DNA of 33,194 bases from a virus (Duplodnaviria; Caudoviricetes): the IMG/VR virus record IMGVR_UViG_3300044647_001071, positions 1 to 33,194 of that record; one strand, written 5' to 3'. Below the pieces are notes generated by a model that worked only from the letters and a program-made list of their open reading frames with translations, had not been told where the DNA came from and did not search any database. Positions 8,391 through 33,194 of the stretch are shown here, one piece after another. The position numbers and the translations under genes were made by a program. Positions within the stretch are counted from its first letter, which is position 1. Each line of letters begins with the position of its first letter.

Positions 8391-10034
8391 TTAGATGTCA
8401 CCGAGGTCAGAAACTTGGATGAGACCATAGAATTCTGGACGGACAATCTTCTTAGCGTAGCGAGTCATTACACCCTTACGTGGTGTGAAGTTCGCTGGGT
8501 CATATACCAACGGTGTCATCACGAGTGGGATATAAGGAGCATACACTGCACCTGTTTCGAGGAATTGTGTTCCACGGAAACCGACGAGAATTTGATTCTC
8601 AAGCATATATGGGTTCTTATAAACTGTGATACGACCATTGAGTGAACCAACCTTCTGAACACCCATCGCAAACTTCATACCTTCACCGTCTACAGCATAT
8701 CCAGGGATTGACTCAAGGATTGTTGCGACTTGTGGTGAACATACGAGGAAGTTAGCACCACCGCGGAGTGTCTTCTGGTGGATAACGTTTGATACCTTTT
8801 GGATCTTGGTACCAAGTGTTTGGAACCATGTCTGTTGGTTGAAAGCAGCTGCAGCAGCTTGGTTTGTTGCGTAGTCAGAGAAACCACTTGAAGCGGCATC
8901 ATAAGCACGACCGATACGAGCTGACCATCTTTCTGTTGTCTGAGCGTTCTTGATAAGCATATCAAGGATTTCGAGATCAATTTCTTGTGAGATGTACTCA
9001 GAAAGCATTGATGTCAATTCTGCTTCAGCGTCGATTGAGTGGTAAGCGTTCAAGTCTTGAGCATATTCTGGTGTCCAGACTGCCTTCAACTTACGTGTCT
9101 TAGCCACGATTGACTCAGAACGAAGTTCAAGGTTGATTTCTGGGATACCAATGTCTGCACCTGATGATTGTTCTTCAAAGTCACCACGAGTTGTTGATGT
9201 TGGTTGCTTCTGATATGTCACGAATACGTTGCCTGTTGGAGCAGCAGCACCTGAAACAACAAATGTTACTTGTGTGTTTGCTGCGTTTGTAAATGTGAAT
9301 TGTGGGAAGTAACCTGCAACATTTGAACCACTGATTCTGTAAGCACGAACTCCTTCGAAGTCAGGTGTTGAAAGTGATGCTGTTGAGAATGTTACTGTGA
9401 AGATATTGCCAGCGTTGAGAGCTGTAAGATATGCAGCTTCGAATTCTGTATCAAATTGATAAACAGACTTTGAAGATGTTGAAACTGAACCTGTTGTGAA
9501 AGCATCAGCTGCAAGTGATGTTGACTTTGTGATTGCTGTTGTTGTTGTATCGTTGACTGAATAGCCGAAACGTCCAGCACCGTAAAGACCGCCTGACGGG
9601 TCAGCATCCTTAGCACCGGTACCAGTTACACCGAATACAGAGTCAGCTTGTGAATCCTTACCAGCACCTGTTGTGAATCCAGGTTGTGCTGTTCCGTACT
9701 TAAAGTCAAGGAAGAACACGAGACCTGAAGGAAGGTTCATCGGTTGAACTGAAACGAAATCCTTTGCTGCGATTTCAGAGAAGATACGACGAACAAGTGG
9801 GAGAGCAACGCCAGCCCATTCTTCTGAACCAGCTGCTGTACCTGTACGTGATGATTCGTCGATAAGTTGCTTTGCTTGGTTCTCAAGAAGAACCGCGATT
9901 GAGTTCTTTTCGAACTCTGTCTTGATACCATCAAGAAGTCCTGTCTTTTCCCACTTCTTGATAGCGCCCTTGTTCTCATTCATAAGATTCTTATGAGCTG
10001 AGTTTGTAGAGCCTAAAATTGATTGAATACTCAT
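8391..10034 (-). CDS. Major capsid protein (T4 gp23-like)
   Basis: LPLVRR, VSVQPMNLPSGLVFFL, AKTRKLKAVWTPEYAQDLNAYHSIDAEAEL, YAPYIPL and FTPRKGVMTRYA; SD GGAGA at 10042-10046. Confidence 0.97.
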   Translation of the reverse strand: MSIQSILGSTNSAHKNLMNENKGAIKKWEKTGLLDGIKTEFEKNSIAVLLENQAKQLIDESSRTGTAAGSEEWAGVALPLVRRIFSEIAAKDFVSVQPMNLPSGLVFFLDFKYGTAQPGFTTGAGKDSQADSVFGVTGTGAKDADPSGGLYGAGRFGYSVNDTTTTAITKSTSLAADAFTTGSVSTSSKSVYQFDTEFEAAYLTALNAGNIFTVTFSTASLSTPDFEGVRAYRISGSNVAGYFPQFTFTNAANTQVTFVVSGAAAPTGNVFVTYQKQPTSTTRGDFEEQSSGADIGIPEINLELRSESIVAKTRKLKAVWTPEYAQDLNAYHSIDAEAELTSMLSEYISQEIDLEILDMLIKNAQTTERWSARIGRAYDAASSGFSDYATNQAAAAAFNQQTWFQTLGTKIQKVSNVIHQKTLRGGANFLVCSPQVATILESIPGYAVDGEGMKFAMGVQKVGSLNGRITVYKNPYMLENQILVGFRGTQFLETGAVYAPYIPLVMTPLVYDPANFTPRKGVMTRYAKKIVRPEFYGLIQVSDLGDI

Positions 10035-10057
10035 TTATGTGTCTCCAATTTAAAAAG

Positions 10058-11131
10058 TTATAATAAACCTGCTAATTTCTTAAATCTATCTGCCACCTGA
10101 TTTGATTCTGTGAGAATCTTCTTAGATGGACGTGTGCTTGCTTGTGGCTTACTTGCAAATGATTCCTTCAAAGATGATTTCTTTGTTGACTTTGGTGTCT
10201 TCATAGAACGACCCTTGAATGATTCAGCGAGTGTTGCATAAACCAACTTGACTTCACGCAAACTACCTGCACGATCAAAGTTTTCAATAACTGTGACCTT
10301 TTGTGACTCTGTTAAAGAGTATGAACGGAAAAGTTTGTTTGAGAACAAGAGCTTAGAGTTAAGAAGATTGACTTCGTTTAGCTTTTCACGTAAGAATTGG
10401 ATGACCGCATAAGCTTCATTGACTTTTTCTTCCATTTCAGCTTTTTCTTCATCTTCACCTTCTTCCATTGCTGGTTCTTCATCTTCGCCTTCTTCCATTT
10501 CTGATTCTTCGTCTTCTTCACGAAGAGCACGAAGAATTTCCTTGATGTCAGCTTCTTCTTCATCACCTTCTTCTACTGCTGGCGCTTCTTCTTCCTCTTC
10601 TTCAACTAACTGCACAAGCTTTTCTTTCTTGTCTGTTGTGCTGTCATCTGAAGCATACTTGGAAGGTTGCTTGTTATCACCCTTTCCAATTTCTGATGAG
10701 TCGAGTTCTTCTTCGAGTTGACGGATGATTTCCATGAGGTCTTCATCAATCTCTTCGTCGTCACCTTCTTCCATTGGTGTCTCTTCGTCGTCACCTTCTT
10801 CCATTGGTGTCTCTTCGTCATCACCTTCTTCTACCGGCATTTCTTCTTCGGCTTCTTCCATTGCTGGTTCTTCGTCGTCGCCTTCTTCTACCGGCATTTC
10901 TTCGTCATCACCTTCTTCCATCGTTTCTTCACCTTCTTCGCCTTCCATATACCACTCATCTTCACCTTCTGTCATTTCTTCGTCTGACTCGGCTTCTTCT
11001 GAGAGTTTTGTTGCGATCATGGATTGAATACGTGGTTGGAAGGCTTCTTCGAGAGCAAGCTTAGCATTGGCAAGTGCCACTTCACGGACTGCCTTTGCAT
11101 CTGCGATTGCTTCTTTCAGTAAATCTGTCAT
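10058..11131 (-). CDS. Prohead core / scaffold protein (T4 gp22-like)
   Basis: Very acidic helical protein directly upstream of MCP. Start moved to ATG 11131 (MTDLLKEAIADAK), which has SD GGAGA at 11137-11141. Confidence 0.8.
   Translation of the reverse strand: MTDLLKEAIADAKAVREVALANAKLALEEAFQPRIQSMIATKLSEEAESDEEMTEGEDEWYMEGEEGEETMEEGDDEEMPVEEGDDEEPAMEEAEEEMPVEEGDDEETPMEEGDDEETPMEEGDDEEIDEDLMEIIRQLEEELDSSEIGKGDNKQPSKYASDDSTTDKKEKLVQLVEEEEEEAPAVEEGDEEEADIKEILRALREEDEESEMEEGEDEEPAMEEGEDEEKAEMEEKVNEAYAVIQFLREKLNEVNLLNSKLLFSNKLFRSYSLTESQKVTVIENFDRAGSLREVKLVYATLAESFKGRSMKTPKSTKKSSLKESFASKPQASTRPSKKILTESNQVADRFKKLAGLL
10751..10945. repeat. In-frame 30-nt tandem repeats encoding (TPMEEGDDEE)n in the scaffold gene
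   Basis: CTCTTCGTCGTCACCTTCTTCCATTGGTGT is exact at 10751-10780 and 10781-10810, with degenerate copies to about 10945. Confidence 0.9.
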
Positions 11132-11220
11132 TGTAGTCTCCAACTAATTTCAGGGTTATTGATAACGCCTATCTAACAGTAAAAATAGTATTGACTCTAT
11201 ATGTATAGAGTATTATACTC

Positions 11221-11239: not shown

Positions 11240-11425
11240 TTATTTTATCACTTTTTTCTTGTTTGGAACTAATTTTTTTAGTAAAATATTTGATTTTTCT
11301 GTATTTTCGTTCTTATCAAATATCGTTCCTGTATCACCGAGTCTGAAAATGTGGGCAACATCTTCCTCGTCATAAATGAATCGTTGTGATGGCTTTGGTT
11401 TTTCTACTTCTTTTTCTTCAGGCAT
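11240..11425 (-). CDS. Small hypothetical protein (61 aa)
   Basis: Overlaps the ART stop, preceded by GGAG, fills the gap. Confidence 0.6.
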   Translation of the reverse strand: MPEEKEVEKPKPSQRFIYDEEDVAHIFRLGDTGTIFDKNENTEKSNILLKKLVPNKKKVIK

Positions 11426-12584
11426 TTGGTTGCTCCACTGATACTGTATAGATATTCTTCTTTTTATCGTGTTTCTCTATTCTGAATCGGCATCCTCTTG
11501 GTAGTGTTATTTCGGACTCAATACAAAATTCATCTTCCTCACATGGTAACATCAAAACTCGTGAACCACGAGTTAGCTTTATCTCAAAAATTGCAGTCTT
11601 ACCACGAGTTTGAAGATTTCTATCTGAAAAATCTTCCGCTATGAGTGGGTTTAGTGTTGTAGAAACGAATCCGTTATCAATCCACTCCCCAGCTTCAATA
11701 AACTGTTGGAGTATTTCTTTTTTTATACCACGATAAACAACTGTATCATTTTGTAATACAGCACCTGGTGATTTGAAATGTTCGTCCATCAACAAAATGT
11801 TATACATCTTATATTTTGTTGGCATTGACGTTTTCGCATCTGGTGTTGATTTGATTACCTTTTCCAATTCGTCCTTCGACCAAGAGATTTTATTACCTTC
11901 ACGTAAAAAAGAATTTATAGAAAAAGAATCATTGTGATAATATTTTGCAGCTTGTATTGTTTGTTCATCACTTTTATATGTTGAAAGTGCTGCTAATTTT
12001 GCAATAGCGATTGATTGAAATCGCTTTGCAGTTTTTCTAATTTGAACCACCGTTTTCTTTGAACCTTCTTTATCACCAACCTCGTCTTGAGTTTTGAGTG
12101 TTTGAAGAAGATTATCATATTCACGGAAGAAAGAAGTAAACTCAAATTTTATGAGTTTATTTTTCAAGTCTGGTCTTGTATTTTGTATATCTTGAACAAT
12201 TTCTTCTTTTTCTTTATCATCAAGATAAATATAAGAACCCAGTTTCTTTTCAAGTTTTTTATGAGGCGGCAGATTTTTTTCATCTTCTTTTTCCTTTTCC
12301 TTTTTCTGCTCCTTTTCTTTCTGGTCAATTTTACCAAAAGCAGCTGCAATTGGATCTCCACCAGAATCACCAGCATCTGCTGGTTTTTCTTCTGTTTCCT
12401 TCGCGGGTTCTTCTTTTTTCTTTTTTTCTTTTGGTTCTGATTTTTCGTGAACAGATGGGTCAAAACTATCCTTACTTATATAGTAAGACTTCCCACTCTC
12501 CTTGTTCTTTACAAGCATCTTATCGGGGTTCTCACTAGCAGGTTTTTCATCCTTTTCAAGTAATATGTTTTTTAGTTTTATCAT
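11418..12584 (-). CDS. NAD:arginine ADP-ribosyltransferase (VIP2/Alt-like, R-S-E class) with charged N-terminal extension
   Basis: INSFLR, VVYRG, WIDNGFVSTT, AIFEI and ESEITLPRG (ExE). Likely start MIKLKNILLE at 12584; GTG 12590 is an alternative. Confidence 0.88.
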   Translation of the reverse strand: MIKLKNILLEKDEKPASENPDKMLVKNKESGKSYYISKDSFDPSVHEKSEPKEKKKKEEPAKETEEKPADAGDSGGDPIAAAFGKIDQKEKEQKKEKEKEDEKNLPPHKKLEKKLGSYIYLDDKEKEEIVQDIQNTRPDLKNKLIKFEFTSFFREYDNLLQTLKTQDEVGDKEGSKKTVVQIRKTAKRFQSIAIAKLAALSTYKSDEQTIQAAKYYHNDSFSINSFLREGNKISWSKDELEKVIKSTPDAKTSMPTKYKMYNILLMDEHFKSPGAVLQNDTVVYRGIKKEILQQFIEAGEWIDNGFVSTTLNPLIAEDFSDRNLQTRGKTAIFEIKLTRGSRVLMLPCEEDEFCIESEITLPRGCRFRIEKHDKKKNIYTVSVEQPNA

Positions 12585-12598
12585 CTTCACCGAGTTAG

Positions 12599-12829
12599 TT
12601 ATTCTTGTTCTCGGTCAAGCTTTCTTTGTCTCTTCCGAGATGCGTTCATTTTATCTTTTTTCTTTTCAGAAGGTTTGATGTATTCAGTCCTTCTCTTATA
12701 TTCTTCAAGTATTCCACTTTCCTTTACCTTACGTTTGAAAATCTTCAACATAAGGTCAATGTTCATTCCATTTCCTTTGACCTTGACGTGTGCTGTTTTT
12801 GGTCTGTTGCTGTAAACTTGATCTGACAT
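12599..12829 (-). CDS. rpsU: Phage-encoded ribosomal protein bS21
   Basis: VKVKG..NIDLMLKIFKRKVKESGILEEYKRRTEYIKPSEKK matches the bS21 pattern; 76 aa and basic. Confidence 0.9.
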   Translation of the reverse strand: MSDQVYSNRPKTAHVKVKGNGMNIDLMLKIFKRKVKESGILEEYKRRTEYIKPSEKKKDKMNASRKRQRKLDREQE

Positions 12830-12843
12830 AACCTATTTCCTTT

Positions 12844-13512
12844 TTATTTTTGATTTTTTTCGTTTACCGATTCAGGCGTTTCTTCATCGCCTTTTTCTTT
12901 GATTTCATAGTATTTGCCGAGTGTTTCACCAATTTCTTCATAAACCGCTTCGAGTCTTTGTTGAAGTTTTGTTACTTCATTTACTGTCTTTTCAAAGATC
13001 TTGAATGATTCATTCATCTTACGAGTATGACGTGAAAGAGTCATTCCATCAAACCAATCACCGGATTCGTCTACGATGTTCTTTGAAGCAAATTCAACAA
13101 TCTTTTTGATGTTTGAGTAAGCTTCTTTTAGTTTACCTTGACGATAGATTGATTCACCGAACTGATTATACTTGCCGATGAGTTCAACATAAAGTTTCTT
13201 TTGTTCCGGTGTCAAGACTCTTTCTGGTGTTTCTTGTTTTTCATCTTCACCTTCACGGAGAAATTTAGTTACAGTTTCTTTTACCATCTTACGAATCTTA
13301 CTTTTCTTTGTTTCTGTCATTTTTACTGACTCCGCTTTATTTGGAAGACCTTTGTGTTTTGTTCCGGCATATTTTTCAAGTTCTTTTTCTGACATAGAAG
13401 CTGCAACTTGTTTTACATTCTTACTTACTTTTGAAGCAGGAACTTCCCCACGTTTGTAGGCAAGAACAAGTCCCATAAATTTCTGTTGTTGTTTACTAAC
13501 TGCAGGCATCAT
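12844..13512 (-). CDS. Hypothetical protein with DUF3008-like N-terminus and helical C-terminal domain
   Basis: MPAVSKQQQKFMG...SMSEKELEKYAGTKHKGLP resembles DUF3008 (from memory); SD AGGAG. Confidence 0.75.
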   Translation of the reverse strand: MMPAVSKQQQKFMGLVLAYKRGEVPASKVSKNVKQVAASMSEKELEKYAGTKHKGLPNKAESVKMTETKKSKIRKMVKETVTKFLREGEDEKQETPERVLTPEQKKLYVELIGKYNQFGESIYRQGKLKEAYSNIKKIVEFASKNIVDESGDWFDGMTLSRHTRKMNESFKIFEKTVNEVTKLQQRLEAVYEEIGETLGKYYEIKEKGDEETPESVNEKNQK

Positions 13513-13521
13513 TTACTCCTA

Positions 13522-14181
13522 TCAAAATATACATTCACATACATCGCCAATTTCACAAATAATCTTTGTGATGTTCTCGTTTATACGTTGAAGTTTAGGG
13601 TCAATCTTAGCAATAGTCTTGAGGTCAACACCTTCTTTGATTAGACCTTCACCAACAACTTGACCAGCACCGGCAGGGTACATAAATGCACCATGAGTAG
13701 ATGGATTTGATACAAAGTCCCAACCAATCAACTCAAAGTCATCTTGGACTTCGACCGTTGTTTCATTTATTTCTTTCACCGAACCCATACCACGGGATGA
13801 TATACCAAGACGAATTCCAGCTTGTAGAAGGTTCTTTAGAATGTTTCCTGAAGGAGTGGGGAGGATTTCTACTTTACCAACAACATCATCACCGTCCCAA
13901 TTTACATCAAGAACGTTATGACAAACATTACGAAGATTGATAACAGATGAATCGGGGTGGTCTAACTCACCGAGAGCACGATTTTCTTTGATTTGTGTTT
14001 TCTTGTAATTGGCAACTTCACGCATAAGAATCTTTTTTGGATAAACACGTCCATTTTGATTCTTTGCCTCTGCACGTTGAAGAACACCCGATACGATAAG
14101 TTTACCACCGTTATCTGATGATTCGTTCAATTGACGTGGGGTTGCTGAAAAAAGTATTGTGTCTACAAGTAAATGTTTCAT
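13522..14181 (-). CDS. Prohead core protease (T4 gp21-like)
   Basis: GVLQRAEAKNQNGRVYP, ALGELDHP, GISSRGMGS and DFVSNPST. Confidence 0.95.
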   Translation of the reverse strand: MKHLLVDTILFSATPRQLNESSDNGGKLIVSGVLQRAEAKNQNGRVYPKKILMREVANYKKTQIKENRALGELDHPDSSVINLRNVCHNVLDVNWDGDDVVGKVEILPTPSGNILKNLLQAGIRLGISSRGMGSVKEINETTVEVQDDFELIGWDFVSNPSTHGAFMYPAGAGQVVGEGLIKEGVDLKTIAKIDPKLQRINENITKIICEIGDVCECIF

Positions 14182-15925: not shown

Positions 15926-15933
15926 ATAAATAT
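15926..15933 (-). promoter_or_regulatory. Putative late promoter motif ATATTTAT
   Basis: + strand ATAAATAT in the gap after the portal gene. Confidence 0.55.
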
Positions 15934-15942
15934 GACCTAAAC

Positions 15943-17841
15943 TCAAATTTCTTCCATTAAATTAGACTCATCAAGTAAATTAGATGTTTCTGTATTTTGT
16001 TCCGATGCCGGTTTTAGACTTTCTGAAATAATTGATTTTGTTTTTACTCTACCAAAAGACATAGAGTCCAACATATCACTAATTTCCTTTGTCAAACCAT
16101 CACGTTTTGTAGATTCAGTTGCCAGAGGAGAATTGCCCTTGTAGTTATGTTTTGGAGAAAGGTTTACATCAAGTGTCTTACCGATGTCTTTCTTACCAAG
16201 TGGATCTCTTCCGAATGGACTTCTATCTGTTCCATATGTAGAACCACCTTCTTTTGGTCTACCAGCACCCGGCCATCCACCTTCAGGAACTTCCACATCA
16301 TTGATTTGTTGAGGTCTCTTACCACCATAAATATTCATAGATGCCAAATCGTGTGGAGTTCCAAATGATTCCTTCGTAATCTTTGGATCATTTCCTTCAC
16401 TTTCAATTTGTTTCTGACGGAACTGATGTTTGATGTCTTCAATGATTTCATTCTTCTCAAACTCAGCGTCATCTTCCGAAAGATTGAATACATTTGCATA
16501 AACATATTTCATTGAGAAAAGACGCTTTTCAATCAGATTTGAAGCAAGGTCTACTCTTTCTTTCCAAAGGGCAATCTTCTCTTGTTCATAGATGATAGAA
16601 GGACCGGTAAGAGAAAGTTCAAAGTCAACAAGGTCTGCGTTCTCGTATCCTTGAGCATACAAGTGAACGATAGCAATCTTTGTCAATTCAGAAATAACGA
16701 TACGTTGGATTCTTTCAATCGTTCTTGCAAAACGAATATCAAGTGTTGCAAGTGTTGCCTTACCTTCGAGTGATTCGTCAAATCCAAGATATGCCTTTGG
16801 AACCTTTAGAGCAGCAAATATCTTACTCTTTAGGTATTCAACGTCTTCAATTGCTTGATATTGAAGTCCAGCCAGAGTTTCTATATTAGTACCAGCTTGG
16901 CCACCACGAACAGGAAGATAGAAATCTTCAAGAAGGTTTTGCATATTGTAACGAAGATTATATTCACCTGTTCTTTCGTCCATAACAGGTGTCTTCTTCA
17001 TTGCATTCATTACGTTCTGCATATACTGGTCAACTTCCGCTGGTGGAATATTACCAATATCAATCTTGAAGATTCTCTTTTCAGGAGCTCTCATGATACG
17101 GTGAATCAACATCGCATCTTCCATAAGAACAAGTTGCTTGTAAAGTTTACGAGCACCTTCTAACATTGACTTACCATAAGGTAGGAAGTTTGTGTCACCT
17201 AAAAGACGGAAGTGTGCAATTTCATAATTTTGAAATTCACCTTTACCAAGTGGGCCTTCGTAAACAAACTTTGTCATATAGATGTGTTCAGGATCTGTTC
17301 CTTCATCACGTTGCATTTCATATGGTGAAAGTGGAACAACGTTTGTGATACCGACCTCATCTTTTACATCAAGATAAAGATAATTGTCACCGTACTTACA
17401 AAGGTTACGAATCCACGGCCACAGGTTATATTCAATGTTTATAATATCATAGAAAAGATTGTGTAGAATCTTTCTGATGTTGTCATTATCTGAACGAATT
17501 GAAAGAACATCACCTGTATCATTTTTCAATGTAGATTCGTCGGCGTAAATATCAAGTGCCGATGATACGATTGCGTCTGTGTCCATTGCCTCGTAGTCTG
17601 TGTAAAGGTCAATCTTTGTTGCAGAGAACGAGTTATATTGGTTGTAAACAGAAATAGGAGTTCCGCGAGTTCCGTGTAATCTCCCATAACGATCAATAAC
17701 TTTTGATGTATGTGGGTTTCCATCTGCTTGATAGCGAGCGGTATCAACTACTTTTAGTCGCTTACCCCCGACGTTACGAACGACCACGTTTGTTGAAAAT
17801 AGCACACGGAGCCGATCAAATAATGATTTTCGTTCAGCCAT
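15943..17841 (-). CDS. Portal protein (T4 gp20-like)
   Basis: MEDAMLIHRIMRAPEKRIFKIDIGNIP, LEDFYLPVRG, IETLAG, IEDVEYL and ALKVPK; start taken at ATG 17841 (MAERK). Confidence 0.96.
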   Translation of the reverse strand: MAERKSLFDRLRVLFSTNVVVRNVGGKRLKVVDTARYQADGNPHTSKVIDRYGRLHGTRGTPISVYNQYNSFSATKIDLYTDYEAMDTDAIVSSALDIYADESTLKNDTGDVLSIRSDNDNIRKILHNLFYDIINIEYNLWPWIRNLCKYGDNYLYLDVKDEVGITNVVPLSPYEMQRDEGTDPEHIYMTKFVYEGPLGKGEFQNYEIAHFRLLGDTNFLPYGKSMLEGARKLYKQLVLMEDAMLIHRIMRAPEKRIFKIDIGNIPPAEVDQYMQNVMNAMKKTPVMDERTGEYNLRYNMQNLLEDFYLPVRGGQAGTNIETLAGLQYQAIEDVEYLKSKIFAALKVPKAYLGFDESLEGKATLATLDIRFARTIERIQRIVISELTKIAIVHLYAQGYENADLVDFELSLTGPSIIYEQEKIALWKERVDLASNLIEKRLFSMKYVYANVFNLSEDDAEFEKNEIIEDIKHQFRQKQIESEGNDPKITKESFGTPHDLASMNIYGGKRPQQINDVEVPEGGWPGAGRPKEGGSTYGTDRSPFGRDPLGKKDIGKTLDVNLSPKHNYKGNSPLATESTKRDGLTKEISDMLDSMSFGRVKTKSIISESLKPASEQNTETSNLLDESNLMEEI

Positions 17842-17954: not shown

Positions 17955-19553
17955 TTAGAGAAGCCAAGTAAGGTCTTCGTTTGGTTTCTTATCCCCAACG
18001 TCCATCGTCCAACCAGAATCGGAAAGTGGATTTCTCATATTCGTTGTACTGATTACCGACGTTGTTTTTCTCATATAGTCCAACGCCAACCTTGTTCGCA
18101 TCATACCTTCTTGACGTAGTTTGAGTGCGGTATCACGAATCCAAAGTCCCATAGCAAATGACATAACCAAGTCATCGTTATATCCTGTTTGAGCTTCGGC
18201 TCTACCACCGTTCCAAACGAATACGAACATTTCTTCAGCTAAACGATTTGACTTGATGACTGGTGCACGTTCTCTGAAGTACATCTCATACTTTGATACC
18301 ACGAGTGGTCTTGTCTTTGATGTCATTGAGAATCCCGGCACCATTTGTGATTTATCTTTGAGGTCATATCCCTTTGGTATATGAACCGATGGGTCTGTAT
18401 AACCATCTTCTTTGTATGTGTAGTAAAGGTTTGGATAACCACGGTCAATTATTTGTTGGATTACAGCCCAACCGATAGTCGCATTTTCAACTACAAGTAA
18501 GGCATCGTTGTATTCGGTTGCCAAAGATACAAGAAGATTTCCGTAAGATTTTGTATCTAACTTACCACGGTATTCTGCGACTTGTTCAATGTTTTCTATG
18601 TCCATAATGTGAAAGGCAGAATAATCCTTACCATCACCACGGGCAACGTCAGCACATATCATATATGTCTTATTAGGGTCAGGGTCGTCCCATATCCAAA
18701 GGGCACCTTCGGCACCTCTCTTCTCTCTTGGTTCACATACATAAGTTTTCTGATACCAGTCAATTGTATTACCGTCAACAACAGATTGACCCGATGAAAG
18801 GAAGTCACCATCACACTCTTGGGCAGCAAGTGCAGGTCCAAGAATGATGTCTTGTTGGTCTCTCCAAGCTTGGTCTCTTTCAGGATGAACCGTCCAGTGA
18901 AGGAAGATTGGATTGAAAGCACTTGTTCCTGTCTTTGCATTGACCCATTGTTTATGGTAAAAATTACCAACCCCGTTAGGAGTAGAGTTGATAATTGCAG
19001 AACCACCAGTGTTGATTGTAGACTGTGCAGAGGCCCAAATTTCCTCGATGTTATCAATGAAAGCGGCCTCGTCGATGATGAGAAGTGAAAGAGCTTCTGA
19101 ACGAGCTGCATCAGCAGCAGCTGAAACGGCTTTTATCTGTGAACCATTCTTGAAACGAAGTGAGAGTTTGTTATCTTCTACCACCGCAGTTTTCAACCAC
19201 GATGGAAGATTATCATACATAACTCTGACCTTCGTTACGAGGTTCTTTGCAGTTTCTTGTTTGGTGGCAATAACGAGAATGTTTTGGTCTGTTTGGAATA
19301 ACATCAACCAAAGAGAATAACCAGCAATAAGAGTTGAGATACCCAACTGACGAGACTTGAGACAGATATTGTATCGTTCGTTTTGGAAATCTTTTAGAAC
19401 AGATTCCTGAAAGTCCCACAGTTCAAAAAGGATTTTACCACGAACAGGATGTTGAATCTTGGCGTATTTTCTCATAAAGTATCCCGGATTAGAGGCACAC
19501 TTTACATATTCTTCTTTGATTATATCCCGTAACGTTTTGTTTTGTTGAACCAT
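17955..19553 (-). CDS. terL: Terminase large subunit (T4 gp17-like)
   Basis: LKSRQLGIST (Walker A region), LLIIDEAAF (Walker B), STPNG, ADVARGDGKDYSA and DDLVMS. Start moved to ATG 19553, a TAATG overlap with the upstream gene. Confidence 0.96.
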   Translation of the reverse strand: MVQQNKTLRDIIKEEYVKCASNPGYFMRKYAKIQHPVRGKILFELWDFQESVLKDFQNERYNICLKSRQLGISTLIAGYSLWLMLFQTDQNILVIATKQETAKNLVTKVRVMYDNLPSWLKTAVVEDNKLSLRFKNGSQIKAVSAAADAARSEALSLLIIDEAAFIDNIEEIWASAQSTINTGGSAIINSTPNGVGNFYHKQWVNAKTGTSAFNPIFLHWTVHPERDQAWRDQQDIILGPALAAQECDGDFLSSGQSVVDGNTIDWYQKTYVCEPREKRGAEGALWIWDDPDPNKTYMICADVARGDGKDYSAFHIMDIENIEQVAEYRGKLDTKSYGNLLVSLATEYNDALLVVENATIGWAVIQQIIDRGYPNLYYTYKEDGYTDPSVHIPKGYDLKDKSQMVPGFSMTSKTRPLVVSKYEMYFRERAPVIKSNRLAEEMFVFVWNGGRAEAQTGYNDDLVMSFAMGLWIRDTALKLRQEGMMRTRLALDYMRKTTSVISTTNMRNPLSDSGWTMDVGDKKPNEDLTWLL

Positions 19554-26416: not shown

Positions 26417-27998
26417 AGATGTCAAACACCTCCTTTACAACTTCATCAACTTCTGGAATGTAATCGTATAATGTCTTTCCTTCTGGAATTAGATCAATTG
26501 TATCTGTGTGGAATTCCGTGTGACGAATTTCTAGATCATCGAGAAGAAGGCCTTGACGAAGTGCCTTTGTCTTGTAGTATTGAGTTCCATTACGGAAAGG
26601 AAGAATATGATCTTCGTGTTTACACGTTGGAATCGTTACGATCCAATTATCGAACGCACCGGCAATATGAAGTGGTGAAGAATCGTTGGTAAGAAGACAC
26701 CGAGAAAGAGAAATAAGAGACATCAATTCACCCAATGTTGTTAGGTCACGAAGGTCAATTCCGTCTTTTGGACATTGGATTGGAAGATACCCTTGTTTCT
26801 CATCAATTGTTTTACCGATAAGAACTACCGTTAGTTTTTCTGATAACTTGTCTATGATCTTTTGCCACCAATCTTGTGGAAGAGTTTTTGATGGCCACCA
26901 TTTTCCTGCATGAACTACTACTGTTGGTTTATCTTTCTTCTTGGATTCCAACATATTCAGCACTGACATTGTGTCATCTGCTTCTAGTTTTAGCTTAATT
27001 GTTTTTTCGTTATTTGGTATTGTTCTTTTTATCATTGACATGGAGGCAAAATCTGTTGGGTGAAATAGAACATGAGACAATTTATGATCAGATTGTTCAT
27101 CGTCTGGGCACGTGTACATTGTAAGTATAGCATCATTTATGCCGTTCCACTCATCATAGTTCATTACAGGGCAAGAAAGATGTTCAAAAAGACGTGGGAA
27201 ATGTGAAACAACAAAAATATTTGCATCTGAATATAGTTTTTGTGTGTATCGGATTGCCGGTTCAGAGCATAATTGATCTCCCATACCAGCCGTGACTGAA
27301 ATGAGAATATTTCGATTGTATTCATAATTGGGGGAATCCAATTTCCATTGCTCTATATCTTTTTTCATCACATCCATTTGAATTTCTTTTGGGGCACCTG
27401 CATAGTGTACAAAATATGAGTCAAGTCTAGAAATTCCACAAAACCTATCAAGTATATCCATTCGATTAAATTTATAATCCAAGTCAAACATTTCAATCTT
27501 GTCATTCAAAATACGAAGATTGATATAAGGTTGATCCGTTTCTACAAAGTCAATACCTTTTGGTAACTTAAAAATATTTTTGTGAATACGAGAAATCACC
27601 ATCACGCCAGAATTATAGAATTTACCATCCCATTTTTTAAGTGGTTCGTTATAGTATTCAGATGCCTGTTCAAGAAATTCAAAACGAGTGGAATATTTAC
27701 CTTCATTAAACATACCTAATTTATTTTCAGGAACTATTTCAAAAAGATTTGGAGTATCCTCACGAACAAGAATATCAATATCCAAGTAAAGAATCCTTTT
27801 ATATTTGTTTAGGAGTTCATGAATATGAAACTTATTCCATTTCTGTGTAATATAGTGCGGGTTGAACTCATTGATGTTCAAATAGTCTGCACCAATTTTT
27901 TTAGCATATGCCTGAATTGAAGGTGTTGTAAGTTTTGATACTTCATTATAGTAATCCCCGATTGAAATCGTTAGGACGAGTGTGTCTTTTGTTTTCAT
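26400..27998 (-). CDS. Fused glycosyltransferase: GT-A (GT8-like) + GT-B (GT9/heptosyltransferase-like)
   Basis: RILYLDIDIL (DxD), YNSGVMVI, DQPYIN and FVHYAG; then GMGDQLC, DLRDLTTLGEL and LLTNDSSPLHIAGAF. Confidence 0.88.
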   Translation of the reverse strand: MKTKDTLVLTISIGDYYNEVSKLTTPSIQAYAKKIGADYLNINEFNPHYITQKWNKFHIHELLNKYKRILYLDIDILVREDTPNLFEIVPENKLGMFNEGKYSTRFEFLEQASEYYNEPLKKWDGKFYNSGVMVISRIHKNIFKLPKGIDFVETDQPYINLRILNDKIEMFDLDYKFNRMDILDRFCGISRLDSYFVHYAGAPKEIQMDVMKKDIEQWKLDSPNYEYNRNILISVTAGMGDQLCSEPAIRYTQKLYSDANIFVVSHFPRLFEHLSCPVMNYDEWNGINDAILTMYTCPDDEQSDHKLSHVLFHPTDFASMSMIKRTIPNNEKTIKLKLEADDTMSVLNMLESKKKDKPTVVVHAGKWWPSKTLPQDWWQKIIDKLSEKLTVVLIGKTIDEKQGYLPIQCPKDGIDLRDLTTLGELMSLISLSRCLLTNDSSPLHIAGAFDNWIVTIPTCKHEDHILPFRNGTQYYKTKALRQGLLLDDLEIRHTEFHTDTIDLIPEGKTLYDYIPEVDEVVKEVFDIYDNNR

Positions 27999-28061: not shown

Positions 28062-30338
28062 TTAAATATTACAAACACGAATTGGTGTGCTGGAAAATTG
28101 AACTGATGAATTTCCTAATCCAAGAAGATTACTAGCACCTATTGCAGAAACTGCAACATTTAGTCCCCACCCCCAAATTATTCCATTTTTATCTATTGCA
28201 AAACCACTGTATCCATTTGCCATAACTTGACAAAAAGTTTTTGTTGCACCAACCACAGATACTGGAGTGCTTCTTGAAGTTGCTGTACCGTTCGCTAATT
28301 GACCATACTGATTCTGGCCCCACGACCAAAGACGGCCGGCTTTATCAATGGCAACTGTAAAGTTTAGTCCTGCTGCTATTTTACAAAAAGTTTTATTTGC
28401 ACCTAAAAGACCAACCGGAGTTATTGCTCTAATGGTTGAACCATTACCAAGTTGTCCAAATGAGTTAATTCCCCAACCCCATACTTTTCCATTTTTGTCT
28501 ATTGCCATAGTGTGAGCCAGTTTTGTAGATATTTCGCAGAATGTTTTTGAACCATAAACAGCAACTGGTGTTCTTCGCGATGTAGTGGTTCCGTCTCCCA
28601 AATAAGCATTACTGGAATTATTTCCCCATGACCATGCTTTTCCATTTTTATCTATTGCAATTGTAAATCCTTGTGCACCAGCTTCTATTTTACAAAAAGT
28701 TTTTGCTGCACCGGCTACTGCTACTGGTGTAGATCTAGCAGTTATTGTATTATCTCCCAATCTTCCATTTGTATTACTTCCCCACCCCCATGCCTTTCCG
28801 TTTTTATCAATTCCCATAGTGTGGTTGCCAGATGTTGCTATTTTACAAAAAGTTTTTGTAGTTCCAGCAACAGAAACTGGAGTACATTTACCGGTTGCCG
28901 TGTTATTTCCAAGTTGACCACTACTATTAGCACCCCAACCCCATACTTTTCCATTTTTGTCTATACCGACTGTATTTGATCCATTTGAACTTATAAAACA
29001 GAAGGTCTTAGCAGCGCCTGCAATACAAACGGGTGTTGCTTTACAAGTAGATGAATTATCTCCATATTCACCTGTTGAAGAATTATAACCCCAAGACCAA
29101 ACTTGTCCATTTTTATCAATACCAGCTGCGTGTTGACCCAGTATAGTTGAATTATATCCCATCTGAATACTACAAAATGTTCTTATCGTTCCTCCAATTG
29201 ATATTGGACTTGTTATGGATGTAATGTATGGTACACCAAGTCCTCCATATCCGTTCCACCCCCAAGACCAAACTTTTCCAGAACTATCTATTGCAAATGC
29301 ATAATCGCGGCCGCCCGCAATTTCACAAACTACTTTATTAGCGAGTGCACCACCAACAGCAACTGGTGTTAGTGCCGATGCGCACGATATATTTCCATTT
29401 CCCAATAGATATGTTGATGCAATATTCTGTCCCCATGACCATAGTTTGCCATTTTTATCTATTCCATATGAGTTGAATAATCCAGTAAATATTTTACAAA
29501 ATGTTTTATTTGTTCCACCAACAGCAACGGGTGTTGATTTACATATTACACTATTGTCACCCACTTGTCCGTGTGCATTATATCCCCAACCCCAAAGTTT
29601 ACCATTTTTGTCTATTGCGAGTGCTTGGTTTTTTACTTTTATGACACAAAATGTTTTTGTAGCACCACCGAGAGCAACCGGAGTAAGTTTAGAGATTGTA
29701 GTGTTATCACCAACTGTCCCATATGAGTTATTTCCCCATGCCCATACTTTACCGTCTTTGTCTATTGTAAGTCTAGTACTGTATCCGGCTATGTGGCAAA
29801 AAGTTCTTGTCAGTGCAGCACCAACAACAGATACTGGAGTAGATTTTAAAATTGTTGTTCCATCGCCAATCTGTCCACTACTGTTTTCACCCCAAGCCCA
29901 AAGTTTACCATTTTTATCTATTCCAGTACTAGAATTACCACCACTATCTATTTTACAAAAAGTTTTTGCAGTTCCAGCAACAGAAACTGGGGTGCATTTT
30001 GAAGTTATACTGTTATCCCCAAGTTGACCACTACTATTAGCACCCCAACCCCATACTTTTCCATTTTTGTCTATGGCAAGATGATTTTGATCGCCAGTTG
30101 CTAACATACAAAAAGTTTTTGTTAAACCGGCGATAAGTGTAGGAGTACACTTACAAACTGTTGTGGAAAGATTTTGACCCAATTGTCCCCTGGTATTTTC
30201 TCCCCAAGTCCATATGCGACCAGTTCCACTCAAAAATGCTGCCGTAATTTCTCCTTCTCCAACTTGACCAATTACAACAGGAGGAACAGGACTATATGTT
30301 CTTTTTATCTGTACTGTTACATTTTTTATAAATGGCAT
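28062..30338 (-). CDS. RCC1/BLIP-II-like repeat protein, 14 repeats (two 7-bladed propellers)
   Basis: Counted 14 copies of G(K/R/Q/I)xWxWGxN..G.LG....TPV, each about 52 aa. Confidence 0.92.
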   Translation of the reverse strand: MPFIKNVTVQIKRTYSPVPPVVIGQVGEGEITAAFLSGTGRIWTWGENTRGQLGQNLSTTVCKCTPTLIAGLTKTFCMLATGDQNHLAIDKNGKVWGWGANSSGQLGDNSITSKCTPVSVAGTAKTFCKIDSGGNSSTGIDKNGKLWAWGENSSGQIGDGTTILKSTPVSVVGAALTRTFCHIAGYSTRLTIDKDGKVWAWGNNSYGTVGDNTTISKLTPVALGGATKTFCVIKVKNQALAIDKNGKLWGWGYNAHGQVGDNSVICKSTPVAVGGTNKTFCKIFTGLFNSYGIDKNGKLWSWGQNIASTYLLGNGNISCASALTPVAVGGALANKVVCEIAGGRDYAFAIDSSGKVWSWGWNGYGGLGVPYITSITSPISIGGTIRTFCSIQMGYNSTILGQHAAGIDKNGQVWSWGYNSSTGEYGDNSSTCKATPVCIAGAAKTFCFISSNGSNTVGIDKNGKVWGWGANSSGQLGNNTATGKCTPVSVAGTTKTFCKIATSGNHTMGIDKNGKAWGWGSNTNGRLGDNTITARSTPVAVAGAAKTFCKIEAGAQGFTIAIDKNGKAWSWGNNSSNAYLGDGTTTSRRTPVAVYGSKTFCEISTKLAHTMAIDKNGKVWGWGINSFGQLGNGSTIRAITPVGLLGANKTFCKIAAGLNFTVAIDKAGRLWSWGQNQYGQLANGTATSRSTPVSVVGATKTFCQVMANGYSGFAIDKNGIIWGWGLNVAVSAIGASNLLGLGNSSVQFSSTPIRVCNI

Positions 30339-30740: not shown

Positions 30741-33194
30741 TTATCCACTAACTTGGACAATATGTGTTACGGCGTTCCAGTAAATTGTTTTTGCAGCTTC
30801 ACCGGTTACTCGTAGAAGTAATCTACCACCAAGAGCAACTGCTGTTGTATTCCAAGCAACTGTATCTTCTATTGCAGTTACTTGAACAGCACCTACAAGA
30901 GCAACGGCACCCGCATTATTATCAATAGCACCTTGTAACCAATAGGCCGCACTTTCATTGTCTGCATCAGTTCTTCTTGCCACAATATACGAAGTAAACA
31001 TCCAAGTTGTATCATTTGGAACAGCCAATCCAGCAACATTATTCCAAACATTAAATTGAAGTGTTGTTTGGGTTCCGTCTGTTGTACTACCCGATGCATA
31101 AACTCGATATTCTGGATAAGCACCTGTAAAGTCACCGAGTTGTGGTGTAGCGGCCGTAAGTCCACCATTGAATGAACCAATAACACCTGGAGCAAACATA
31201 TGAGAACGAACAGAAGTTCCTGTATCTTTCAGCACTATTTCAGTTTGTCCCCATTCACTTCCATTTGTATGTGTTGTCCATACATAATCAAGGAAACCGA
31301 CGGTTGTATTTTCTGTTGTACTTGTTTCTGATTCAAATTCAATACCAACACCGAGACTTTGTGTTGCAGTTCCGGTGGTGTTATTTATGATATTTAGATT
31401 TCGTACCGAGGCATTTGTAGTTGCAGTGCTTGATGAAACTGTAAGGATATTACCGGCAAATGTTAAATTTGCAGATGCAGTTGCCGCATTATTTGTACCG
31501 TCACTTATTATTAAACGACTACCACTTGCACTATTTATTGTGTTGAATCCTGTCCCTGATGTTCCTGATGAACCAGCTCCACCTGTTTGACCTGAACTTC
31601 CTGATGAGCCAGTTGAACCGGATGTTCCTGATGAACCAGCTCCACCTGTTTGACCTGAACTTCCTGATGAGCCAGTTGAACCTGATGTTCCTGATGAACC
31701 AGCTCCACCTGTTTGACCTGAACTTCCTGATGAGCCAGTTGAACCAGATGAACCTGTTGAACCCGAACTTCCAGTTGAACCAGATGAACCGGCTGTACCA
31801 GATGAACCTGCCCCACCTGTTTGACCTGAACTTCCTGATGAACCGGTTGAGCCACTTGTTCCCGATGAACCTGTTGAGCCAGATGAACCAGTTGAACCAG
31901 ATGTTCCCGATGAACCGGTTGAGCCAGATGAACCGGTTGATCCAGATGTTCCCGATGAACCGGTTGAGCCAGATGAACCAGTTGAACCCGATGTTCCAGA
32001 AGAACCAGATGTTCCTCTTGTACCAGAGGATCCTGATGAACCCGATGAACCAGTTGATCCAGATGTTCCCGATGAACCGGTTGAGCCAGACGAACCAGTT
32101 GAACCAGATGTTCCTGATGAACCGGTTGAGCCAGACGAACCAGTTGAACCAGATGTTCCTGATGAACCAGCAGCTCCAGATGAACCTGAAGTCCCTGAAG
32201 AGCCTGATTGTCCTGATGTTCCTGATGAACCAGAAGCACCAGCAGCTCCAGATGAACCTGATGTCCCTGAAGAGCCCGATTGTCCTGATGTTCCCGATGA
32301 ACCTGTTGAGCCGGACGTTCCCGATGAACCCGTTGAACCCGATGAACCTGATGTTCCTGATGTTCCTGAAGTTCCTGAAGAACCAGTTGAACCAGATGTC
32401 CCCGATGAACCAACTGACGCAAGCCAAGTAGAACCATTTGAACGATAGATGTTATTATCAACGGTATTATAATAGATTCCTCCAAGAATAGCATCTGGAT
32501 TTGATGATGCTCTTGGAATTTGTAATGAACCTGTTATTGATAATGAACCTGTGAACTTATGAGTATCATCTATACTATCACCAAATTTAGTTGAACCACT
32601 TTCAAAAATAATTGAAGCAGATACAAACTCTGTATAAAATTCTTGAGCCGTAAGTTTACCAGTTACAACCGTATCACCCGTTACCGTGAAAGTATTTGAA
32701 CTATATGTTAGATTTACTGAAGCAGTTGCAGCGTTTATCGTTCCATCTGAAAGTAATACTCTACCAGATGCCGGTGAATTTATTGTGTTGAAACCTGTTC
32801 CTGATGAACCCGATGACCCCGATGTTCCCGAAGAACCAGTTGAACCTGAAGAACCTGTTGAACCTGATGTTCCCGAGCTTCCTGTTGAGCCAGATGAACC
32901 TGATGTCCCTGATGAACCAGTTGAACCTGAAGAGCCAGTTGAGCCAGATGTTCCACTTGAACCAGTTGAGCCAGAAGAACCAGTTGAACCAGAAGAACCC
33001 GTTGAGCCAGATGTCCCTGATGTTCCTGAACTTCCTGTTGAACCTGATGAACCTGTTGAACCTGATGTTCCACTTGAACCAGTTGAACCTGATGAACCAG
33101 TTGAACCAGATGTTCCACTTGAACCAGTTGAACCAGAAGAACCGGTTGAACCAGATGTTCCTGAAGAACCTGTTGAGCCAGATGAACCTGTTGA
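30741..33194 (-). CDS. Long fibre protein with Gly-X-Y (Ser/Thr-rich) collagen-like tracts; 5' end outside the window
   Basis: The annotated 164-aa ORF is only the C-terminus. The same frame reads (GSSGTSGST)n, GTGFNTINS and LTAQEF...SGSTKFGDSIDDTHKFTGS at the points checked, out to position 33194 (over 810 aa). Confidence 0.9.
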   Translation of the reverse strand, partial: STGSSGSTGSSGTSGSTGSSGSTGSSGTSGSTGSSGSTGSSGTSGSTGSSGSTGSSGTSGTSGSTGSSGSTGSSGSTGSSGTSGSTGSSGSTGSSGTSGSSGSTGSSGTSGSTGSSGSTGSSGTSGSSGSSGTGFNTINSPASGRVLLSDGTINAATASVNLTYSSNTFTVTGDTVVTGKLTAQEFYTEFVSASIIFESGSTKFGDSIDDTHKFTGSLSITGSLQIPRASSNPDAILGGIYYNTVDNNIYRSNGSTWLASVGSSGTSGSTGSSGTSGTSGTSGSSGSTGSSGTSGSTGSSGTSGQSGSSGTSGSSGAAGASGSSGTSGQSGSSGTSGSSGAAGSSGTSGSTGSSGSTGSSGTSGSTGSSGSTGSSGTSGSTGSSGSSGSSGTRGTSGSSGTSGSTGSSGSTGSSGTSGSTGSSGSTGSSGTSGSTGSSGSTGSSGTSGSTGSSGSSGQTGGAGSSGTAGSSGSTGSSGSTGSSGSTGSSGSSGQTGGAGSSGTSGSTGSSGSSGQTGGAGSSGTSGSTGSSGSSGQTGGAGSSGTSGTGFNTINSASGSRLIISDGTNNAATASANLTFAGNILTVSSSTATTNASVRNLNIINNTTGTATQSLGVGIEFESETSTTENTTVGFLDYVWTTHTNGSEWGQTEIVLKDTGTSVRSHMFAPGVIGSFNGGLTAATPQLGDFTGAYPEYRVYASGSTTDGTQTTLQFNVWNNVAGLAVPNDTTWMFTSYIVARRTDADNESAAYWLQGAIDNNAGAVALVGAVQVTAIEDTVAWNTTAVALGGRLLLRVTGEAAKTIYWNAVTHIVQVSG
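31549..32412. repeat. 9-nt-periodic Gly-X-Y coding repeat tract including three 63-nt tandem copies (31561-31749)
   Basis: Units such as GATGAACC, GTTGAACC and GATGTTCC; the 63-nt copies start at 31561, 31624 and 31687 and differ at one synonymous site. Confidence 0.95.
32793..33194. repeat. Second Gly-X-Y Ser/Thr repeat tract (truncated by the window)
   Basis: Same 9-nt periodic units as the first tract. Confidence 0.95.

Follow-up and report, generated by a model that had tools for sequence, protein, structure and literature searches.

Can a ribosomal protein encoded among the head genes of a phage change which mRNAs the infected cell translates? Among the ribosomal proteins of phages, bS21 is the commonest, and we know of no mechanism of mRNA selection that has been demonstrated for a phage bS21. 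The question is raised here by rpsU, a bS21 gene of a Caudoviricetes virus (IMG/VR record IMGVR_UViG_3300044647_001071; the whole stretch analysed, 33,194 nucleotides long, is hereafter called the window). In Bacteroidia, the anti-Shine-Dalgarno (anti-SD) sequence is sequestered and bS21 is autoregulated (Jha 2021, PMC7797042; McNutt 2023, PMC9976891). The initial annotation proposed that the phage protein lacks the Tyr residue that takes part in this sequestration and that its incorporation frees the anti-SD, selectively boosting SD-led virion mRNAs over SD-less host mRNAs. Our analysis of the window is mostly a correction of that proposal: the gene and the SDs are real, the mechanism is wrong for the lineage of this rpsU, and the pattern found at the level of the family is testable.

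The rpsU gene (12599-12829, minus strand, like all genes of the window given below) codes for a 76-residue protein that matches PF01165 (E 1.2e-14; 54.2 bits for a Pfam gathering cut-off of 27, over positions 5-55 of the 55-position profile), PHROG 21469 and bS21 chains of the PDB (E 5e-7). Its identification as a phage bS21 of the head module is thus borne out: it lies on the same strand as its neighbours, between the genes of the prohead protease (13522-14181, PF03420) and a DUF3008 protein (12844-13512) and those of an acidic scaffold-like protein (10058-11131) and the major capsid protein Gp23 (8391-10034, PF07068). The T4-like head module reads, all on one strand, terminase large subunit (17955-19553, PF03237), T4-like portal (15943-17841, PF07230), protease, DUF3008, rpsU, ADP-ribosyltransferase, scaffold and Gp23. 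The scaffold-like protein was named from its position and composition, and no family match was found for it in Pfam or PHROG. The DUF3008 gene stops 14 nt ahead of rpsU, which leaves no space for a promoter between the two; the gene run that includes rpsU is headed by the putative late-promoter motif ATATTTAT at 15926-15933 (-), which in every genome of the family is enriched in intergenic DNA in the sense orientation, mainly before structural genes. Directly 3' of rpsU, an Alt-like ADP-ribosyltransferase is encoded (11418-12584; PF03496, E 1.7e-10, with a weak match to PHROG 26651), in whose sequence R, STT and ExE-type motifs are discernible. Such a gene follows rpsU in 35/53 loci of the clade to which this phage belongs, hereafter the rpsU clade, and we detected none in the further genomes of the family that were checked. 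Elsewhere in the window, the tail sheath gene (3-2369), syntenic with the annotated sheath gene of phage Mel-JY01, runs off the window, as does that of a long fibre-like protein with Gly/Ser/Thr repeats (30741-33194), and a 758-residue RCC1-repeat protein is encoded at 28062-30338. Small shares were seen in 24 lake or freshwater RNA runs; among the four examined, one (X5) yields a 201-nt contig over most of rpsU, but such contigs say nothing about expression level, strand or co-transcription, and the samples may contain DNA.

As initially annotated, no aromatic residue follows the KPS motif of this bS21, whose only aromatic residues are Y6, H14, F31, Y44 and Y50. Alignment with the 7jil chain places Tyr54 of Flavobacterium johnsoniae 14 residues after the K of KPS; by this rule its column is occupied in the phage protein by Lys66 (12632-12634), within a very basic tail, and the Tyr is absent. 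The tail is rich in Lys and Arg, hence not weakly basic as in Bacteroidia-type bS21 (PMC7797042), and the Tyr at 54 of that type is replaced by Lys66. At the other end, an extension of about 12-14 residues precedes the bS21 core (12788-12829), as evidenced by the Pfam match, which begins at residue 19, corresponding to profile position 5, and by an alignment of 39 bS21 proteins of the family.

All 11 SD motifs listed in the initial annotation are present on the minus strand, including GGAGA ahead of the sheath (2376-2380), capsid (10042-10046) and scaffold-like (11137-11141) genes. GGAG or GAGG precedes 14 of the 33 hand-set starts of the window, compared with 1 in a control region 20 nt further upstream and a shuffle mean of 1.3 (p<=0.0005), and any of GGA, GGT, GGG or GAGG precedes 24/33, compared with 8 in the control region and a shuffle mean of 8.2. 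Their description as strong does not hold, as 8/33 sites reach -7 kcal/mol and 1/33 reaches -13 kcal/mol (RNAduplex with a 12-nt anti-SD). The sole very strong SD is AAAGGAGGTG (26427-26436 (-), -14.8 kcal/mol), which precedes a 183-aa, non-structural-looking ORF. Nor is rpsU left with AGGT only, as first stated: that motif (12831-12834 (-)) is too near the start to serve as an SD, and AAGGA at -13 to -9 (12838-12842 (-)) constitutes a weak SD; a GG-type motif at SD spacing is found before 36/39 distinct rpsU genes of the clade. The SD of rpsU amounts to -4.9 kcal/mol with RNAduplex, a method different from the published one, and falls short of the -13 kcal/mol of Bacteroidia-type rpsU.

Because the window belongs to a 19%-complete record and covers the head and tail region only, without the early region, a late bias of the SDs was sought in relatives. 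Close relatives of the bS21 protein occur at 54 loci in IMG/VR, and a single relative, that of Mel-JY01, comes from a cultured phage. We rebuilt from stretches the genomes of Mel-JY01, Flavobacterium phage immuto, the Rhodothermus phage RM378 and 19 further records; complete genomes include G009 (177 kb) and G001 (253 kb) in the rpsU clade, as well as immuto and G010. Genes were called blind to SDs, a procedure that on Mel-JY01 gave 213/213 calls matching annotated stops, 179 of them with the same start. An SD in relatives was defined as GGA, GGT, GGG or GAGG with its last base 3-13 nt ahead of the start, for which the control 20 nt upstream gives approximately 15-35%. Late and non-late genes were told apart through homologues in the structural modules of Mel-JY01 and immuto, or according to which promoter motif precedes the gene; both criteria are approximate. 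RM378, tried as a control outside Bacteroidia, showed SDs before 44/122 classed genes, compared with 30-35% in the control, and no host-type promoters.

Two motifs stood out in the intergenic DNA of the relatives. The former, TTG-N18..23-TAnnTTTG, is of the Bacteroidota housekeeping promoter type (PMC6847099) and was taken as the early, or host-type, promoter. It is found in 21/84 intergenic regions of G009, 17/85 of Mel-JY01 and 10/120 of G001, compared with 2.9, 1.7 and 1.3 in shuffled sequences, respectively; a less strict version of it is known from Chlorobaculum (bioRxiv 172254). The latter, ATATTTAT, is present in sense intergenic DNA before structural genes of all family genomes including immuto, and its placement suggests that it is probably a late promoter, unlike the T4 motif TATAAATA. 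In the window it occurs on the minus strand at 15933, 11228, 8321, 2762, 2413 and other positions. No enrichment of sigma70 TTGACA/TATAAT promoters or of T4 late TATAAATA promoters was detected in the intergenic DNA of relatives.

The early genes of the clade carry SDs as often as the late ones. In ten clade genomes, SDs precede 73/96 first genes behind host-type promoters and 111/159 behind late-type promoters (p=0.31), and a stricter promoter pattern gives 49/65 and 126/181, respectively. Structural and other genes compare similarly, with 49/77 vs 67/102 in the complete G009, 37/73 vs 129/220 in the complete G001, 26/37 vs 57/80 in G002, 44/68 vs 29/41 in G014 and, using its own annotation, 55/68 vs 116/165 in Mel-JY01 (p=0.11). 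GGAG and GAGG are late-biased in Mel-JY01 alone (22/68 vs 20/165, p=6e-4), and four other clade genomes do not repeat this. The assignment of SDs to late genes in the initial annotation is therefore not borne out by the complete relatives, and an early-to-late switch fails for the rpsU clade, being contradicted by the SDs of early genes. Equal SD frequencies in the two gene classes are among the outcomes that the initial annotation itself named as refuting its proposal.

We then asked what SD use follows across the family. Three capsid-protein scans yielded 142 loci that passed our filters (a whole capsid gene, at least nine genes, and bS21 or a visible protease-to-capsid slot), which were condensed into a table of 75 rows plus an outgroup. 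A share of SD-preceded genes of at least 0.4 is found in 37/38 rows with bS21 and 1/37 rows without it; in fragments, a bS21 gene lying outside the sequenced part could have gone unseen, immuto and G010 being complete. Rows with Tyr or Phe at position 54 are SD-rich in 18/18 cases and those without in 17/18, with a mean share of 0.73 in both; two rows were unscored, and the automatic column call overlooked the Tyr of L302. SD use thus follows the presence of bS21 and not the loss of Tyr54, contrary to the claim that loss of the Tyr is what frees the anti-SD. The status of bS21 changes at least four times on the family tree, a single clade of bS21-less rows being rejected (AU p=0.0008). These changes afford four pairs of independent contrasts, too few for significance (sign test p=0.125). 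Exceptions to the coupling are L242/G008, with bS21 and few SDs (4/39 structural genes in G008), L351, outside the tree, with a Tyr-type bS21 and an SD share of 0.22, and L171, with a share of 0.46 and no detected bS21. In the alignment of 39 family proteins, the N-terminal extension is present on every bS21 from an SD-rich locus and missing from the bS21 of G022, of the type described by Chen et al.; its distribution would make it a better candidate than the Tyr for the link with SDs. bS21 is kept in 56/56 clade loci spanning protease to capsid, although these loci are not independent. We found no cultured phage with a Tyr-type bS21 of the family, and gp069 of immuto, which occupies a similar position, is not a bS21.

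Across the family, promoters and SDs combine in distinct arrangements. Phages without bS21 (arrangement A) lack SDs, which precede 4/76 first genes behind host promoters and 1/53 late ones. In arrangement B, that of the sister clades, the bS21 gene has a promoter-like motif immediately upstream in 34/44 cases, a count made without a shuffle control, and an SD in 1/44. Most of these more distant phages retain the Tyr in their bS21. SDs are late-biased in the sister clades, with 6/55 first genes behind host promoters vs 42/65 late ones (p=9e-10), and structural genes compare with other genes as 40/63 vs 39/141 in G007, 26/54 vs 32/208 in G018, 44/60 vs 15/34 in G016 and 25/41 vs 23/60 in G006. 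Poorer fits are G018, in which 2/11 first genes behind late promoters have SDs, and the fragment G019, in which 46/75 non-late genes have SDs and the bS21 slot is missing. From these sequence features, arrangement B looks like a true switch, as it is what a switch would need: a bS21 mRNA readable by unmodified ribosomes and made first.

In arrangement C, that of the rpsU clade, rpsU belongs to a late run, has its own SD (36/39) and no upstream promoter-like motif of the host type (0/39), and SDs occur genome-wide. Neither mark of a switch, namely a bS21 gene with its own host-type promoter and no SD, or SDs on late but not on host-promoter genes, is thus found in this clade; given its late operon, its own SD and its lack of a host promoter, bS21 could not precede the other products and trigger a switch. 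A fourth type is represented by G022, whose bS21 (G022:C1 181186-181371) is short, encoded on the reverse strand and endowed with Tyr54, as in Chen et al., and in which SDs are lacking, late genes included (1/21, 4/36); Chen-type bS21 likely has a different role. The bS21 genes of the sister clades (loci L217, L219, L222, L224, L227, L231, L232 and L283-L322; genomes G006, G007, G016 and G018) combine a host-type promoter, an SD-less A-rich start region and a Lys-rich N-terminal extension, often with an IPG motif, amid SD-led late genes. They are our best candidates for a true ribosome switch.

The nature of the host matters for the rpsU clade. The early promoters of the relatives indicate that the host of the rpsU phage is probably of the Bacteroidota type, in line with the initial annotation. 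Its membership of the class Bacteroidia meets mixed observations, as early TIRs are not Bacteroidia-like and an accessory gene of G001 is. A-12 and A-13 are determinants of initiation in Flavobacterium (PMC6847099). In non-structural genes of five clade genomes, A at -13 to -11 remains at background (0.37-0.43, background 0.36-0.43), and it is raised in seven genomes without bS21 or with an early bS21 (0.51-0.67 vs 0.37-0.45). The clade promoters also tolerate G in TAnnTTTG (19/93 vs 8/148, p=6e-4, mostly from Mel-JY01 and G001), at a position where G is nearly absent in F. johnsoniae (PMC6847099), hinting at another sigma factor. SD-preceded genes make up 28.4% in Ignavibacterium album and 36.4% in Melioribacter roseus vs 1-2% in Bacteroidia, Kapabacteria not being listed in the part of that source available to us (PMC10783764); Ignavibacteria-like hosts, with 28-36% SD genes, would fit the clade. 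Against a host outside Bacteroidia, the named homologues of the G001 accessory protein are from Bacteroidia (Cytophagales, Chitinophaga, ~70%), this protein nests among SD-less bacterial loci, and the sister row of the clade, L309, has neither bS21 nor SDs, like immuto. Similarly, a cluster of relatives of the G009 glutamine synthetase has one MAG label, 'Flavobacteriaceae bacterium', which may stem from a binned phage contig. In favour of a host outside Bacteroidia, the closest homologue of the G001 accessory protein (76%) belongs to G021, a complete distant phage without bS21 and with SDs genome-wide (55% vs 23% in the control); against this use of it, no TAnnTTTG promoters were found in G021, which may therefore infect another phylum.

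Other routes to the host gave no name. The relatives of bS21 provided one GTDB match, which was spurious; a search of 50% clusters yielded, outside the clade, only divergent proteins, and the five inspected bear no organism names; a cluster look-up of ten clade proteins found no host, and the best 120 relatives of the glutamine synthetase bear no organism names. Among accessory genes (G001:C1 230-247 kb; L069, L070 and L272), G009 codes for a glutamine synthetase II and an asparagine synthase, and in G001 we noted 33 tRNA genes, panB, RfbH, GuaB, MetK, peptide deformylase and an IscB-like HNH gene. Three unrelated large phages, G001 (C1 232879-237289), G021 and G022, each carry an ABC transporter operon that includes a lipoprotein-like gene with an OmpA domain, ~70% identical to Cytophagales and Chitinophaga counterparts. 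The early regions of Mel-JY01 (PP395634, L056-L059; 63-150 kb), which is filed under Microcystis elabens, contain Bacteroidota-type promoters and no sigma70-type enrichment. Judging from these promoters, Mel-JY01 probably infects a Bacteroidota bacterium that accompanies M. elabens in culture, and the listed host is likely misassigned.

As early mRNAs are read before the bS21 of the late operon exists, either the host reads SDs natively or a virion component converts its ribosomes. We lean, with moderate confidence, towards a host of the Bacteroidota type but outside the class Bacteroidia that natively reads SDs, in which bS21 would be a late-made replacement sustaining SD-led initiation rather than a switch. 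Unmodified host ribosomes would read the early mRNAs and would thus already pair with SDs, and the basic, Tyr-free tail would be the ordinary non-Bacteroidia type. Late-made bS21, predicted to enter the 30S subunit, would keep the anti-SD available for the abundant virion mRNAs. The clade would descend from phages with an early, SD-less bS21 gene and late-biased SDs. None of the features measured accounts for the strict retention of bS21 (56/56) if the host already reads SDs. Conversely, bS21 itself might be the virion component: in an SD-blind Bacteroidia host, it would be packed in the capsid and injected, converting ribosomes from the first minute so that early genes can use SDs. Packaging would account together for the move of rpsU from an early promoter to the late head operon, for its retention and for SDs on early genes, and indeed the loss of the host promoter (0/39), the late-operon position and early SDs coincide in the clade, bS21 is never missing from its 56 loci, the promoters are canonical TAnnTTTG and the G001 accessory gene is Bacteroidia-like. 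Packaging is among the possibilities mentioned by Chen et al. (PMC9723584). In 35/53 loci, moreover, rpsU adjoins the gene of the Alt-like transferase. T4 Alt is packaged and injected. Nevertheless, we consider this explanation unlikely, as bS21 lacks the N-terminal IKLKnILLE-type motif of the neighbouring transferase and other head-region proteins, which by an analogy drawn from T4 may be a packaging signal, a small number of injected copies would need to replace the bS21 of a large pool of intact ribosomes, and the promoter and TIR features are unlike those of Flavobacterium-type phages. In addition, the complete G001 has SD-led early genes and no transferase, and we discarded the transferase as the cause of early SDs on this ground.

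The mechanism initially put forward, in which a late Tyr-less bS21 frees the anti-SD in a Bacteroidia host and gives SD-led virion mRNAs an advantage over host and early mRNAs that lack SDs, appears very improbable for this clade. The Lys in the Tyr54 column, the late bias of GGAG/GAGG in Mel-JY01, the family-wide coupling (37/38 vs 1/37) and the effect of Y54A, which lifts strong-SD reporters by 70% to 3-fold in F. johnsoniae (PMC9976891), speak for it. The gain from loss of the tail or of Tyr54 was, however, shown for strong SDs only, and tail-less ribosomes perform less well, rather than better, on a weak-SD mRNA (PMC9976891), so that Tyr loss alone would not explain sites that are mostly weak; furthermore, rpsU itself is SD-led, the 18 aromatic-54 rows are all SD-rich, and late bias is missing from four other clade genomes and from the promoter-defined classes. 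What stands of the proposal is the probable Bacteroidota-type host, the coupling of bS21 with SDs in the family and the late bias in sister clades; its application to the rpsU clade does not (73/96 vs 111/159). bS21 might finally have an unrelated job, restoring a protein lost to host defence or starvation and keeping ribosomes active while SD use follows the host. The SD-less late genes of G022 in spite of its short Tyr54 bS21 (1/21, 4/36), G008/L242 with SDs on 4/39 structural genes, the proximity of bS21 to head genes also in phages whose assigned hosts are Proteobacteria and Firmicutes (PMC9723584) and the low number of independent contrasts, four (p=0.125), are in keeping with such a role. 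The host alone, however, can produce neither the within-genome split of the sister clades (6/55 vs 42/65, p=9e-10) nor SD-less rpsU genes amid SD-led neighbours (1/44 with SD), and we find this role unlikely.

What is new here is the split into arrangements, the use of the promoter and TIR of rpsU as a predictor, and the likely misassignment of the Mel-JY01 host. In our survey of the family, the presence of bS21 and not the loss of Tyr54 tracks SD use, the N-terminal extension marks the SD-linked forms of bS21, and late-biased as opposed to genome-wide SDs can be predicted from the promoter and TIR of rpsU. In literature whose coverage excluded most subscription journals, we found no work tying phage bS21 to SD distribution and none on Mel-JY01. 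The true host of Mel-JY01 and the content of its virions would distinguish a shift of host from the injection of a ribosomal protein. If packaged, bS21 would be a ribosomal protein acting as an injected factor of host takeover, and the family would form a series from no bS21 and no SDs, through early bS21 and late-biased SDs, to packaged bS21 and SDs everywhere.

Compared with known systems, the presence of bS21 near phage head genes, its late expression and the idea of replacement have been published (PMC9723584). Chen et al. (2022, PMC9723584) described freshwater myophages assigned to Bacteroidetes that resemble the rpsU phage in their lake origin, in a Bacteroidota-type host, probable for the rpsU phage, and in a bS21 gene close to those of terminase, portal, prohead protease and capsid, with a proposed late role favouring phage mRNA. 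In those phages (clades a-e), bS21 is on the opposite strand, 61/61 have an aromatic residue at Tyr54 and complete genomes are 293-331 kb, whereas the rpsU phage has a co-oriented bS21 with Lys at 54 and an N-terminal extension, and its complete relatives are 177-253 kb; G022, with the layout of Chen et al., lacks SDs, in contrast with the genome-wide SDs of the rpsU clade. Bacteroidia bS21 is the same protein at the same platform site, where loss of the tail or of Tyr54 lets ribosomes use strong SDs (PMC9976891). In Bacteroidia, an SD stronger than -13 kcal/mol precedes the host rpsU, whose product ends in a weakly basic tail with Tyr; the phage rpsU has a weak SD (-4.9 kcal/mol) and codes for a basic, Tyr-free tail. 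Mel-JY01 shares with the window the gene order from terminase to sheath, a bS21 63% and a capsid protein 69.5% identical, and has SDs genome-wide; unlike the window phage, it is cultured, complete and listed with a cyanobacterium as its host. Flavobacterium phage immuto (Immutovirus, NC_055915) has the same family architecture, a capsid protein 57% identical and the same two promoter types, but it has no bS21 and no SDs (18/209 genes, below the upstream control).
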